This document shows positions 2,695 to 13,547 of a DNA stretch of 35,008 nt, one piece after another. The stretch's first letter is position 1. Each line of letters begins with the position of its first letter. The position numbers and the translations under genes were made by a program. The notes beneath the pieces were generated by a model that did not search any database, was not told the origin of the DNA, and was given only the letters and a program-made list of their open reading frames with translations. This stretch comes from Candidatus Micrarchaeia archaeon (GTDB lineage: Archaea > Micrarchaeota > Micrarchaeia > CAILAH01), in the NCBI GenBank assembly GCA_038740245.1, contig JAVYLZ010000005.1, positions 1 to 35,008 on the forward strand. Reading direction: 5' to 3'.

Positions 2695-2781
2695 CGCCCG
2701 AGGCAGGATCGAGCAAACTGAGCGCAGCGAATTTGCGAGATAAGCCGCGGGCCAAGAACTAGGTAAACGCCCGAGGCAGGA
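2695..2781. repeat. 14-bp exact direct repeat (2695-2708 and 2768-2781) duplicating the 3' exon of tRNA-Asn
   Basis: cgcccgaggcagga occurs twice, 73 nt apart. Confidence 0.9.
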
Positions 2782-2957
2782 CAGCCAGCTTGCTGGCGTG
2801 TTGACACCAGCCAAGCATTTGAACCTGCGACCTCCCGGTATGAGGGCGCATCCCCCACATCCGCGGAAATGGGATGCGCATTCCACTTATTATCCACTGG
2901 AAGAAAACCTTCCAGAGGCATAACAGCCGGACGCTCTACCAACTGAGCTACTCGAGC
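2768..2957 (-). tRNA. tRNA-Asn(GUU) with intervening sequences at 37/38 (2840-2920, 81 nt) and 59/60 (2782-2817, 36 nt)
   Basis: Exons 2957-2921, 2839-2818 and 2781-2768 join to a 73-nt cloverleaf: acceptor GCTCGAG/CTCGGGC, D-arm GCTC..GAGC, anticodon stem TCCGG/CCGGG with loop CT-GTT-AA, T-arm GCAGG-TTCAAAT-CCTGC, discriminator G. No encoded CCA. Confidence 0.92.
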
Positions 2958-10420: not shown

Positions 10421-11452
10421 TCAGTACGGATCGTTGTCCAGCATTTTGTTGAAGTTCTTTGGCTTGCGCTTTTTCCAGTTGCCCTGGTGGTATGCATAGC
10501 TTGCTATGAGCGGCACTGCAAGCGTGGCCTCGGCATAAACCATCTGCTCAAAGTCCTGGTCCACCTTGCCCCAAGAGTGCGCCTCCTTAAGCGTGCTGCC
10601 CGACAGCCCGCCATCACGCTCATCAGCCACTGTTATCTGAACGGCATATTTGTGCATCTTAACATTCTTGCCTAACACATCGGCGGCAACCACCACATCC
10701 TGCGCAAAGTTCTTTGGCACACCACCGGAAATCATAAACAGACCTGTTTCGCCGGCAGCAATTTTAACCTTGGTAAGCTCAAGGAAATCCTTGGCCGAAT
10801 CTATTGAGACCTTTGGCTTGCCTTTCCTGTTCCACTGGTGGTACACGAGGCCGAAGCCGGCACTGCAATCGGAGAATGCAGGCACAAATATAGGCACACC
10901 TTTTTCGTACGCTTTGCGCACCACACTGTCCTTGCCTTTATTGCTCTTAACGAGATACTCACCCATCTTGGCGATGAACTCGCGTGATGAATACGGCCTC
11001 GGCTCCAGCGAGTCCGCGATTTTTGCGACGGTAAGGTCGCATTCGCGCAAATCATCCTCATCTATAAACGTGTCATATATCCTGTCAATGTGTTTCTTGT
11101 AAAGGTCATCATCGTCAACTTTCCATGTGCCCTTGTAGTGCTTGAACCCCAGCCCCTCAAAAAAGTCCTGGTCAACGATTATGGCGCCTGTTGACACGAT
11201 TGCATCAACCATATTGTTGTCCACCATATCGTAGACCGCTTTCTTGAGCCCGGCACTGAATATTGAGCCTGCAAGGCAGAGGATTACCGAGCACTTCTCA
11301 TCTGCGAGCATCCTGTCGTAAATCTCCGAGGCCCGCGCGAGTGTCCTCGCTTGGAACGCCATATCCTTATACTGCCTTATAATCGGCGTGGAATCAAACG
11401 ACTTGATGTCCACGTGCTTTATTTCATCCCGTAGGTAGTCAGATTTTTTCAT
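10421..11452 (-). CDS. dys: Deoxyhypusine synthase / DHS-like (homospermidine synthase-like) protein
   Basis: IVSTGA, IDRIYD, GGVPKNF and DGGLSGSTLKEAHSWGK (catalytic Lys) motifs. ATG at 11452 with TTAAATA box upstream. Confidence 0.92.
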   Translation of the reverse strand: MKKSDYLRDEIKHVDIKSFDSTPIIRQYKDMAFQARTLARASEIYDRMLADEKCSVILCLAGSIFSAGLKKAVYDMVDNNMVDAIVSTGAIIVDQDFFEGLGFKHYKGTWKVDDDDLYKKHIDRIYDTFIDEDDLRECDLTVAKIADSLEPRPYSSREFIAKMGEYLVKSNKGKDSVVRKAYEKGVPIFVPAFSDCSAGFGLVYHQWNRKGKPKVSIDSAKDFLELTKVKIAAGETGLFMISGGVPKNFAQDVVVAADVLGKNVKMHKYAVQITVADERDGGLSGSTLKEAHSWGKVDQDFEQMVYAEATLAVPLIASYAYHQGNWKKRKPKNFNKMLDNDPY

Positions 11453-11514
11453 ATGTGAAAGTAATATCAGTGTAATATATTTAAGCATATCACCAGTTCC
11501 CGAAGGGAAAACGC

Positions 11515-11520
11515 AAAAAA
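11515..11520 (-). terminator. Oligo-T terminator of tRNA-Gly
   Basis: T6 run 5 nt after the tRNA discriminator base on the minus strand. Confidence 0.5.
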
Positions 11521-11525
11521 TTAGA

Positions 11526-11891
11526 TGCGGCAGCCGGGATTTTCACATGGCAGCCCAAGGGGGCTCCGCCCCCTTAGTCCGCCACTGCCCAAACCCCCAC
11601 GTGTGTGAGGTATTTTCTTTTGGCAGCCCAAGGGGGCTCCGCCCCCACTTGCGTGGTTGCAAGGGGTGCGGGGCCGTGCAAACAGAATGTTTGCAGGCCA
11701 CATGCGCAAAGCGCATTCTGGCCCGCTGGGGCCCTGCTTTGAACCCGGATCCTAGGCTTTCTCCAGAAGGACTCCGTCCTCCTAGGAGGTTTACCCCCTT
11801 CCCAAACACCTTTCTTTGGTGTCGCTTTCTTTTCCGCAGAAAAGAAAGAGACTGGGAAGCCCATGTCCTGACCAGGTTAGACTACAGCCGC
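11526..11891 (-). tRNA. tRNA-Gly(CCC) with a 94-nt intron at 37/38 (11759-11852) and a 198-nt intron at 59/60 (11540-11737)
   Basis: Exons 11891-11853, 11758-11738 and 11539-11526 join to a 74-nt cloverleaf: GCGGCTG/CTGCCGC-A (one U-U), D-stem GTCT/GGAC, anticodon stem TGGGC/GCCTA with loop TT-CCC-AA, 4-nt variable loop, CCGGG-TTCAAAT-CCCGG. Splice motifs TTCC-CA|G...GGAG-AA|A and TTCA-AA|G-CA...TG-TGAA-AA|T. Confidence 0.92.
11548..11646. repeat. 26-bp exact direct repeat (11548-11573 and 11621-11646) containing a GGGGGC-GGA-GCCCCC hairpin, inside the tRNA-Gly T-loop intron
   Basis: tggcagcccaagggggctccgccccc occurs twice. Confidence 0.92.
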
Positions 11892-11958
11892 ATAAGGGCG
11901 CATCCGCCCCTAAGGGGTGTGTTATTAAAAGGAGGGAATAAATATAAAACTGAAAAAA

Positions 11959-12264
11959 TCAGACGAGGTTAATTTCTATGTGCACGGTATCCGGCACGCG
12001 CACACGCATAATCTGCTTGAGGACCCGCTCATCGCCTTCAACGTAAATCATCCTCTTGTATATCCTCATCTCCCACTTCTCGTAGGTATCCGAACCGTCA
12101 CCGCATGGCGTCCTCCTTGTTGGCAGAACCAGCCTCTTGCGCGGCAGCGGTATCGGGCCCCGTACGGGGATGCCGCCCATCTTCGCGATTTCGGTTATCT
12201 GCCTTGCGACACCGTCAACTTCCTCGTATGACTTCCCTACAAGCTTTATGCGTGCCGATACCAT
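11959..12264 (-). CDS. rps10: 30S ribosomal protein uS10
   Basis: ARIKL..GPIPLP..RRTPCGDGS..WEMRIYKR; directly downstream of tuf. Confidence 0.97.
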   Translation of the reverse strand: MVSARIKLVGKSYEEVDGVARQITEIAKMGGIPVRGPIPLPRKRLVLPTRRTPCGDGSDTYEKWEMRIYKRMIYVEGDERVLKQIMRVRVPDTVHIEINLV

Positions 12265-12272
12265 GCAATCAC

Positions 12273-13547
12273 TTACTTCTTGGGCTGCGCTTCCTTGACG
12301 TCAAGCACAACGCCTGCTGCCACTGTTGAGCCCATGTCGCGTATTGCGAACCTGCCAAGTGCCGGGTAGTCGGAGTATTTCTCAATAACCACCGGCTTGA
12401 GCGGCTTTATCTTGACCACTGCAACATCACCGGTCTTGATGAAGTCCGGCTTGCCTGCGGACTGGCCGCTCTTGGGATCCTTTTTCTCAACGAGCTCAAC
12501 AAACTGGCCTGCAAACTGTGCTGTGTGTATGTGACACACCGGCGTGTATCCAACGGAGATTGCAGTGGGGTGCTGCAGCACTACTATTTGCGCAGTGAAC
12601 TCTTCTGCAACCTTTGGCGGGTTGTTCGGGTCACCGATAACGTCACCCCTCTTCATGTCCTTCTTGTCAACACCCTTTAGGTTGAAGCCGATGTTGTCAC
12701 CGGGCACCGCCTGAGGTATCTCCTGGTGGTGCATCTCAATCCTCTTTACTTCGCCGCGCGCACCGGAAGGCATCACCACAACCACCTGGCCGGGCTTAAG
12801 CGTGCCTGCCTCAACACGGCCGACCGGCACTGTGCCGTGACCTGTAATTGTGAATACGTCCTGCACAGGCAGCCTGAGCGGCTTGTCAATCGGCTTGGGT
12901 GGCACCACGAATTCGTCGAGCACCTGCACGATGGTCGGGCCGGTGTACCACTCCATCTTTGAGGACTTCTTTGCAATGTTGTCCCCGTTGTATGCCGATA
13001 CCGGGATGACCTTTATTGATTCGGTCTTATACCCGATGCTCTTGAGCAGCGTAAGTATCTGCGTCTTAACATCTTCGTACTTGACGCGGTCATAGTTGAC
13101 GGCGTCCATCTTGTTCATTGCGACGACGAGCTGGTTGATGCCGAGCACCTTCGCAAGGAACGCGTGCTCCTTGGTCTGCGGCTGCACACCGTCTTTTACA
13201 GATACGACCAGCACCGCGGCATCCGCCTGTGATGCACCCGTAATCATGTTCTTGACAAAGTCCCTGTGGCCAGGCGCATCAATAATCGTGTAGAAGTACT
13301 TCTGCGTCTTGAACTCCTTGTGGGAGATGTCAATCGTAACGCCACGCTCACGCTCCTCCTTCTGCGTGTCCATCACGAACGCAAACTCAAAGGTCGGCTT
13401 GCCGATCCTCTCGGCCTCCTCCTTGAGCTTCCTCATCTCCTGCTCCGGTATTGCACCGGTGTCAAAGAGAAGCCTACCGACTGTGGTAGATTTGCCTGCA
13501 TCCACATGTCCTATAAAGACAATGTTCATGTGCTGAAGTTCTGCCAT
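12273..13547 (-). CDS. tuf: Translation elongation factor aEF-1 alpha
   Basis: [37 protein letters not shown] and GRFAIRDMG motifs; GAGGTGA RBS. Confidence 0.99.

Follow-up and report, generated by a model that had tools for sequence, protein, structure and literature searches.

A 198-nucleotide T-loop intron in a Micrarchaeota tRNA-Gly(CCC) gene, an apparent member of a copied, modular intron family

T-loop introns in transfer RNA (tRNA) genes of the lineage considered here are of a kind already known from ARMAN-2 (Candidatus Micrarchaeum acidiphilum), where disrupted genes account for 56% of the 43 tRNA genes (Fujishima et al. 2011, PMC3239211). Introns at position 59/60 occur there in pre-tRNA-Cys(GCA), with a motif of class hBH, and in tRNA-Pro(GGG), which is interrupted at both 53/54 and 59/60 (PMC3239211). 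ARMAN-2 also has a tRNA-Ile(UAU), and its splicing endonuclease (EndA), a three-unit enzyme of the epsilon2 type, cuts relaxed motifs (PMC3239211; Hirata et al. 2012; PMC12397907). In this study, we analyzed a tRNA-Gly(CCC) gene from another member of the same phylum. The gene lies in a stretch of 35,008 nucleotides (nt), hereafter the window, which is one whole contig of a Micrarchaeota metagenome-assembled genome (MAG) of 688 kb in 41 contigs, 81% complete (G000). Introns make up 292 of the 366 nt of this gene (80%), and the longer of them, 198 nt, is located at 59/60.

Similar introns in different tRNA species, together with rapid, lineage-specific gain, have been reported in Thermoproteota (a 2010 Mol Biol Evol study, as cited in PMC4033280 and PMC3239211). 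A tRNA-Trp intron of Euryarchaeota carries a box C/D small RNA, and the lengths of archaeal tRNA introns range from 11 to 129 nt (Yoshihisa 2014, PMC4090602). In Asgard archaea, >90% of tRNA genes are interrupted, with many non-canonical sites and several introns per gene (PMC11291895; bioRxiv 10.64898/2026.10.13.758758). The median intervening sequence in these archaea is 22-23 nt long, and copying from one tRNA gene to another left no general signal there (bioRxiv 10.64898/2026.10.13.758758). The arrival of protein-spliced tRNA introns at new sites is an open question; this 2026 preprint tested several arrival routes and found none.

New at the present locus are a 198-nt intron with 95% identical copies in two other tRNA genes, its likely recent gain, its length, and a covarying 51-nt hairpin element within it. 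The reading that we regard as probable is that the gene encodes a likely functional tRNA-Gly(CCC) with two bulge-helix-bulge (BHB) introns, and that its 198-nt intron was recently copied at the DNA level and has no job of its own. The main interest of this intron lies in its membership in a copied, modular family, and not in being a unique structured RNA. The gene and its parts are located in the window as follows.

11891..11526, minus strand: tRNA-Gly(CCC) gene; exons of 39, 21 and 14 nt give a 74-nt tRNA
11853..11891, minus strand: exon 1 (39 nt); 5' strand of the acceptor stem, D-arm, 5' strand of the anticodon stem, and loop to A37, with anticodon CCC
11759..11852, minus strand: intron 1 (94 nt) at 37/38; relaxed hBH motif, four local hairpins
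11738..11758, minus strand: exon 2 (21 nt); position 38, 3' strand of the anticodon stem, 4-nt variable region, 5' strand of the T-stem, and T-loop 54-59
11540..11737, minus strand: intron 2 (198 nt) at 59/60; strict hBHBh' motif, multi-hairpin body
11648..11737, minus strand: 5' module of intron 2, about 90 nt with three to four hairpins, also present in the T-loop introns of four further tRNA genes in G000
11609..11646, minus strand: truncated copy (3' half) of the 51-nt hairpin element in intron 2; internal repeat, 89-91% over 34-38 nt
11548..11598, minus strand: full 51-nt hairpin element in intron 2, tRNA-sense; 14-nt G-rich tail, then hairpin
11526..11539, minus strand: exon 3 (14 nt); U60, 3' strand of the T-stem, 3' strand of the acceptor stem, and discriminator A73
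11515..11520, minus strand: run of six T, read directly from the sequence, starting 6 nt past the tRNA 3' end
11922..11930, minus strand: A/T-rich TATA-like box, read directly from the sequence, about 35 nt upstream of the tRNA 5' end

Intron 2 was compared with its own genome by BLAST, which returned two full-length relatives and three partial ones, all at 59/60 of other tRNA genes.

C34:3793-3985, host Gly(UCC): 95.5% over all 198 nt
C8:15083-15277, host Lys(UUU): 94.9% over all 198 nt
Contig C3, host Ile(UAU): partial copy, 97.8% over the first 90 nt, partly duplicated there
Contig C6, host Arg(GCG): partial copy, 100% over the first 84 nt
Contig C4, host Ser(GCU): partial copy, 90.9% over the last 55 nt

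Similarity between the Lys(UUU) and Gly(CCC) genes is bounded by the T-arm and their remaining exons differ, which argues that the intron was copied and the gene was not duplicated. With near-identical copies in three tRNA genes and ends at the splice sites, intron 2 is placed by these alignments in a copied, modular intron family; intron 1, by the same search, has no copies in the genome. The preliminary description of this locus had called the 198-nt intron exceptional. This is true only by comparison with older literature, since its length exceeds the 11-129 nt of the 2014 review. Within the genome it is one of at least 20 T-loop introns, and copies of 193 and 195 nt that are nearly identical to it interrupt two other tRNA genes.

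These T-loop introns escape standard annotation. In G000, ARAGORN finds 3 intronless tRNA genes by default and 13 when canonical introns are allowed. We used a census script that requires a T-stem, a T-loop, a 4-bp helix and an NN|N bulge before the 3' strand of the T-stem, and that passes the sequence to ARAGORN once the insert has been removed. It reduced 154 candidates to 21 rows, representing 20 genes (one row is a cross-combination of two neighbors on contig C26). The same script returned 0, 0, 1, 0 and 0 rows in five first-order Markov random genomes, so the T-loop introns of G000 are beyond chance. At least 20 tRNA genes thus carry a 59/60 intron of 43-198 nt, that of Gly(CCC) being the longest. 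Other genes are at least as intron-rich, for example with 287+74 nt on contig C32 and 180+151 nt on contig C1. In a permissive cloverleaf script, rows with 6 acceptor pairs and odd variable arms were treated as false and not counted. A tRNA-Ile(UAU) is present in the genome.

The genome shares with ARMAN-2 its phylum, 59/60 introns, several introns per gene, relaxed motifs and tRNA-Ile(UAU). The extent of interruption differs: 56% of 43 tRNA genes are disrupted in ARMAN-2, whereas only 3 intronless genes were found in G000 next to 20 genes with T-loop introns. The available text of the ARMAN-2 account (PMC3239211) mentions no intron lengths, shared intron sequences or repeat modules. The Thermoproteota case of the 2010 study is alike in that intron sequences are common to different tRNA species of one genome; the present one concerns DPANN with an epsilon2 endonuclease, as opposed to alpha2beta2 there, and involves one position (59/60), introns of up to 198 nt, and hairpin modules that also occur outside tRNA genes. 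With Asgard archaea the genome has in common heavy interruption, genes missed by annotators, and the open question of intron arrival. Asgard sequences gave no general copying signal in the preprint, whereas the signal here is strong, with 95% identity across three tRNA species. At 198 nt, against a range of 11-129 nt (PMC4090602) and an Asgard median of 22-23 nt, the lengths seen here are above the published ones that we found. In the open-access literature, we found no paper on shared or repeat-built T-loop introns in Micrarchaeota.

The 59/60 site was also compared among relatives. In the same genus, Gly(CCC) genes have no intron there: the T-loop is intact in both genes of G001, one of which is syntenic, and in two contig-end fragments of G002. 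Among other genera of the family, G005 likewise has none, and G003, G006 and G007 have introns of 31, 98 and 47 nt, respectively, each of unrelated sequence. Filled and empty Gly(CCC) sites differ by exactly 198 nt, and no full-length copy of intron 2 was found among 40 relatives searched. The intact T-loops of G001 and G002 make a recent gain of the 198-nt intron likely. As to the rest of the gene, the syntenic G001 ortholog has a related 90-nt intron 1, its stretch from exon 1 through intron 1 to exon 2 is 77% identical to that of G000, and both the exon 1 sequence class and the exon boundaries recur in Gly tRNA genes of relatives. A 42-nt 59/60 intron in Gly(GCC) of G006 has the same termini as intron 2, GCAGGG...CATGTGAAAA, which suggests growth from a short ancestor.

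G006 also has an intron pair of its own. Its Gly(CCC) and Gly(UCC) genes (L142 and L005, on its contigs C1 and C6) contain a near-identical T-loop intron of 96-98 nt that is unrelated to intron 2 of G000, so intron sharing between Gly isoacceptors has arisen independently.

Removal of the two inserts from the Gly(CCC) gene restores a cloverleaf. ARAGORN called one tRNA-Gly(ccc) on the script-joined exons with their flanks, and all four stems form with the sole exception of acceptor pair 6:67, a U6.U67 mismatch. U33, A37 and discriminator A73 are all present; the gene does not encode CCA. At the 59/60 junction, T-stem CCGGG/CCCGG is followed by central helix UUCA/UGAA, bulges AA|G and AA|U, and inner helix CA/UG. 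This is a strict hBHBh' motif, where h is the 5-bp T-stem and h' is CA/UG; strict and relaxed classes follow the published definition as given in the methods of bioRxiv 10.64898/2026.10.13.758758. At the 37/38 junction, the anticodon stem is UGGGC/GCCUA, the central helix is UUCC/GGAG, which includes one U.G, and the bulges are CA|G and AA|A. This is a relaxed hBH motif without an inner helix, in place of which the 5' end of intron 1 forms a local hairpin.

As it stands in the genome, the gene is invisible to the programs used: ARAGORN called 0 genes in the window and none on the contig even with introns up to 300 nt allowed, Rfam had no match in the window at the gathering threshold, and RF00005, run over the whole genome, had none at the locus. 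An Rfam scan of positions 11300-12100 (801 nt) at E values up to 10 gave 5 noise-level matches (microRNA families, Chlorobi-1, and snoU54 outside the gene). Three open reading frames (ORFs) over the locus, of 141, 95 and 87 aa, matched 0 Pfam families. We rejected a group I/II or homing-endonuclease intron, as neither a ribozyme core (Rfam) nor an intron ORF with a known domain (Pfam on the three ORFs) was found at the locus. An intron-hosted box C/D RNA was also rejected, the best match in the 801-nt scan scoring 21.4 bits against a gathering score of 63. Most of what the preliminary description had said of the gene itself agrees with these results. The three-exon, 80%-intron layout was recovered, one U6.U67 mismatch aside, and the helix, bulges and inner helix at 59/60 were all as it had proposed. 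The intron is ORF-less in the sense of known proteins, the introns contain no C/D or other Rfam family, and the gene is indeed missed by standard finders, both ARAGORN and the Rfam tRNA model.

We infer that the gene is expressed and spliced. The run of six T downstream is likely to be a transcription stop, and the TATA-like box may be a putative promoter. Both introns would be cut out by the three-unit epsilon2-type endonuclease of this lineage, and the exons would then be joined by RtcB. An RtcB gene was found at G000:C6:25708-27012 (E 3e-175, 580.8 bits). The splicing endonuclease family PF01974 was present in 12 of 12 relatives searched, in the form of an ORF of roughly 390 aa with two catalytic-domain matches (385-446 aa in seven family members where complete). 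A same-genus EndA of 394 aa matches the ARMAN-2 structure (PDB 4fz2) over its full length (E 4.5e-125), and judged by sequence, the EndA of all 12 relatives appears to be ARMAN-2-like.

In the reading that we prefer, the T-loop intron would be a recent, lineage-specific gain without a job of its own. Its donor would be a strain-specific composite intron in a paralog, with Gly(UCC) or Lys(UUU) as the most likely host, copied as DNA, and the likeliest route would be ectopic recombination between the T-arm sequences on either side of the site, which are near-identical. Its persistence would be explained by ends that restore a perfect BHB together with the T-loop. The intron would have grown from a short 59/60 intron by uptake of hairpin modules, including the dispersed 51-nt element, and the broad-specificity endonuclease of the lineage would let T-loop introns accumulate. 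Movement at the DNA level is most likely, since the orientation of the element differs between introns and no reverse transcriptase was found in G000 (81% complete).

Several observations weigh against this reading. Changes among the intron copies that keep hairpins (see below) hint at selection on intron structure, which sits uneasily with an intron that has no job of its own. The flanking identity between the Lys and Gly genes is only about 9+5 nt, short for homologous recombination. Pair 6:67 is U6.U67 in the acceptor stem of Gly(CCC), as compared with U6-A67 in the paralogous Gly(UCC), and no inner helix forms at the 5' splice site of intron 1. The splicing endonuclease was not found in G000 in a search by PF01974 only, in an assembly 81% complete. 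As to the DNA evidence given below, the runs may include the source of the MAG itself, so that bridging contigs are not independent proof, and one contig (X3 record 17, 345 nt, 11548-11697) orders the element differently, with two tandem copies and 46 nt skipped. This order reflects either strain variation or assembly ambiguity inside intron 2.

The acceptor mismatch could also mean that the gene is a decaying pseudogene, disabled by insertion and by the mismatch, with GGG codons read by tRNA-Gly(UCC), a tRNA that is present with a perfect acceptor stem. We consider this highly improbable. The mismatch is not peculiar to this copy: Gly(CCC) has a U.C at 6:67 in G001, and G007 and one of the G002 fragments have U.U there, so it looks like a lineage trait and not decay. 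All other stems and both splice motifs are intact, and the T-run follows the gene as the TATA-like box precedes it. The preliminary description had raised the possibility of an intact Gly(CCC) gene elsewhere; none was found in the assembly, where an exon 1 query matched only the Gly(UCC) gene on contig C34, at 85%.

A further concern was that the inserts are assembly artefacts, that is, repeat-induced chimeras in a metagenome bin. A search of sequencing runs for positions 11300-12300 found four DNA runs (X1 to X4), with contigs over parts of the locus, and no RNA run. X2 record 14 covers 11670-11895 with 1 difference and bridges the intron 2/exon 2, exon 2/intron 1 and intron 1/exon 1 junctions; X3 record 17 covers 11387-11613 and bridges exon 3/intron 2; and X1 record 7 covers 11769-12033. 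In X4, from another study, a relative has 156 letters in place of 309. Chimeras are suggested by the multi-copy nature of the intron, by contigs that break inside it, by the one contig with another order of the repeated element, and by the depth of run X1, which is 22-32 over 11640-11741 (the 5' module) and 3-4 in the flanks. The raised depth is what would be expected for a repeat. All four exon-intron junctions are bridged by contigs, which speaks against the assembly artefact that the preliminary description had raised. Moreover, two other tRNA genes, whose exons differ, are interrupted by this intron at the identical nucleotide, and its ends form a perfect BHB with the T-loop, which by the random-genome control would not arise by chance in a chimera. 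An artefact is hardly credible on this evidence.

The structure of the introns bears on another alternative, that the T-loop intron hosts a functional small RNA, either the 51-nt element or the whole intron, which is released by splicing and acts alone, much as archaeal tRNA-Trp introns release box C/D RNAs. Both introns are predicted to be unusually well folded: the minimum free energy (MFE) is -110.9 kcal/mol for intron 2 (z -5.14, 0 of 200 shuffles as stable) and -40.2 kcal/mol for intron 1 (z -3.71). With the cloverleaf and both BHBs forced, the fold reaches -175.1 kcal/mol, as compared with a free minimum of -184.8 kcal/mol; forcing the cloverleaf alone gives -183.6 kcal/mol, within 1.2 kcal/mol of the free minimum. 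The three full intron copies differ by one double compensatory change (GGCCC/GGGCC to GGACC/GGTCC), a 3-nt deletion leaves one hairpin intact, and several changes are to G.U; the remaining differences are in loops and an A-rich linker. Changes that keep hairpins and the fold of the intron are in line with a hosted RNA. So are features of the 51-nt element, the most interesting unexplained part of intron 2.

This element consists of a G-rich tail of 14 nt and then a hairpin in which 16 base pairs form around one A.G mismatch. It was detected in 30 of 201 Micrarchaeia genomes sampled, from at least 13 families, with 1-7 matches per genome. Its exact 27-letter core occurs in 66 stretches among the genomes of 185,579 species, nearly all labelled Micrarchaeota. 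We aligned 20 copies, leaving out L103, L104 and L135 (large loop insertions), L120 and L122 (exact duplicates), and L124 and L132 (missed by the search pattern). In this alignment the hairpin is 96.6% paired and mean column identity is 87%. Two stem pairs covary (GC in 15 copies and CG in 5; UA in 8, AU in 5, GC in 4 and CG in 3), with 0 of 20 copies unpaired there, and the covariation score is 0.186 as compared with 0.054 in shuffles, a value that 0 of 500 shuffles reach. Exact-core matches with both sides recognized have fully complementary stem triplets in 58 of 61 cases. Two wobbles are conserved as well, G.U in 20 of 20 copies and U.G in 17 of 20; the opposite strand would have C.A mismatches, and the wobble pairs form only on the strand that is tRNA-sense in intron 2 of Gly(CCC).

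Conservation at 87% in at least 13 families, covarying pairs, strand-specific G.U pairs and a terminal loop that tolerates inserts of up to 61 nt would all suit an RNA that functions by itself. The terminal loop inserts, of 24-61 nt, are themselves hairpins, i.e., nested insertions (L103, L104, L135, L165, L181, L185, L203).

The genomic context of the element argues otherwise. By pattern, 30 of the 66 exact-core matches abut a T-loop in antisense, 31 are elsewhere, and 5 have no recognizable 3' side. Inspection by eye indicated that about 3 of the 30 are false T-loop calls and that the 31 include at least 4 T-loops shorter by one T, leaving about half as T-loop copies. T-loop copies outside G000 have the element at the start of a 59/60 intron of roughly 72 nt, in antisense to the tRNA; G000 has two such introns (contigs C32 and C16). 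The tRNA-sense orientation was found only in the composite introns of G000 on contigs C5, C34, C8 and C4, with 0 sense T-loop copies outside this genome. Thus, co-transcription with the tRNA is not the usual state of the element. About half of the copies lie outside T-loops, no Rfam match was obtained, and a search of G000 for a target of the G-rich tail, allowing up to 2 mismatches, returned only element copies and three unconvincing matches. The likeness to the tRNA-Trp C/D intron is that of a long, structured archaeal tRNA intron with a separate conserved RNA element. That intron is at 37/38, whereas the site here is the T-loop, no C/D boxes or Rfam match were found, and in other genomes the conserved element mostly runs antisense to its host tRNA (compared with PMC4090602). 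On balance, a hosted small RNA is distinctly unlikely.

Copies away from T-loops are found just past the tRNA 3' end, upstream of a tRNA, between 37-nt direct repeats, and between protein genes. The direct repeats concern L128 (G060:C35:27550-28150, minus strand, about 190-357), where the element and 46 nt lie between two repeats, each combining 12 nt from the start of a tRNA gene with 25 nt of its upstream sequence; the arrangement looks like an insertion or integration scar. In L123 (G053:C44:6650-7250), the element lies within a tandem array whose units, roughly 118 nt long, have a 19-nt repeat, ACGGTGTCGTCATTGCCGC, in common. By eye only, the 5' leader of the Gly(CCC) gene (11892-11917, minus strand) forms a hairpin resembling the 3' half of the element, and a leader with a similar hairpin is also seen in the same-genus ortholog L002.

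Miniature elements of the IS200/IS605 or REP kind are short hairpins, dispersed and strand-specific, whose pairing is imperfect and which favor a short motif in the flank. The 51-nt element is like them by description only: it is a single hairpin and does not have two ends, it abuts the junction directly, and no partner transposase was found in G000. If the intron were nevertheless a dedicated mobile element, i.e., a miniature hairpin transposon served by a transposase in trans and targeting T-loop DNA, recombination between tRNA genes would not be needed. The dispersal of the element (30 of 201 genomes, in introns, tRNA flanks and intergenic DNA) is compatible with this, as are the L128 copy between direct repeats that include a tRNA 5' end and the exact 198-nt difference between filled and empty Gly(CCC) sites. 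The 3' flank of the element mostly begins TT(T)GAA or similar, also away from tRNAs. IS200/IS605-type TnpA and TnpB genes occur in some element-carrying genomes.

Other observations speak against such an element. The Y1 transposase (PF01797) had 0 matches in G000 and was present in only 2 of 5 genomes searched, and a link of the 51-nt element to IS200/IS605 genes found no support in these searches. The sole TnpB-like match in G000 (Cas12f1-like_TNB, C1:60256-60513) is inside a 629-aa open frame and not near any intron-family copy; TnpB-like ORFs of G000, G045, G128 and G058 were not adjacent to element copies with known coordinates. No clear target-site duplication is seen, the AAA at both junctions being imposed by the BHB, and orthologous T-loop copies across families differ by compensatory changes, which favors long vertical descent over recent jumps. 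Exact-core matches in viral contigs numbered 0, and a viral origin of the element was rejected. We therefore think a dedicated transposon unlikely, and we retain copying between tRNA genes as the likeliest source of intron 2.

The element could be a small mobile, intron-seeding hairpin or a functional RNA. More speculatively, and with considerable doubt on our part, it may be an undescribed, Micrarchaeota-wide structured element that seeds and remodels T-loop introns, a mobile BHB-intron "cassette" able to enter the T-loop of any tRNA gene because the host splicing enzyme then removes it. If true, this would be a mechanism for the origin and spread of archaeal tRNA introns.

The locus offers a natural experiment on intron arrival. 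Filled and empty sites occur in one genus, the donor family is preserved at 95% in two other tRNA genes, the ends of the intron rebuild a perfect splice motif, and its building blocks also occur outside tRNA genes. Furthermore, since the finders see 3 tRNA genes by default or 13 with introns allowed, tRNA counts and claims of "missing tRNA" for small archaeal genomes need intron-aware searches.

Elsewhere in the window, a 424-aa ORF neighboring the gene is 91% identical to a record of "Candidatus Micrarchaeum sp.", and Micrarchaeota MAGs also supply its other top matches. The window holds another interrupted tRNA gene, tRNA-Asn(GUU), at 2770-2957 (minus strand). It combines an intron placed after position 37 with an insert in the T-loop, the 3' side of the insert lacking the usual UGAA helix. 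RF00005 matches only its 5' part (22.8 bits), and its 14-nt 3' exon, TCCTGCCTCGGGCG, occurs twice, about 71 nt apart.

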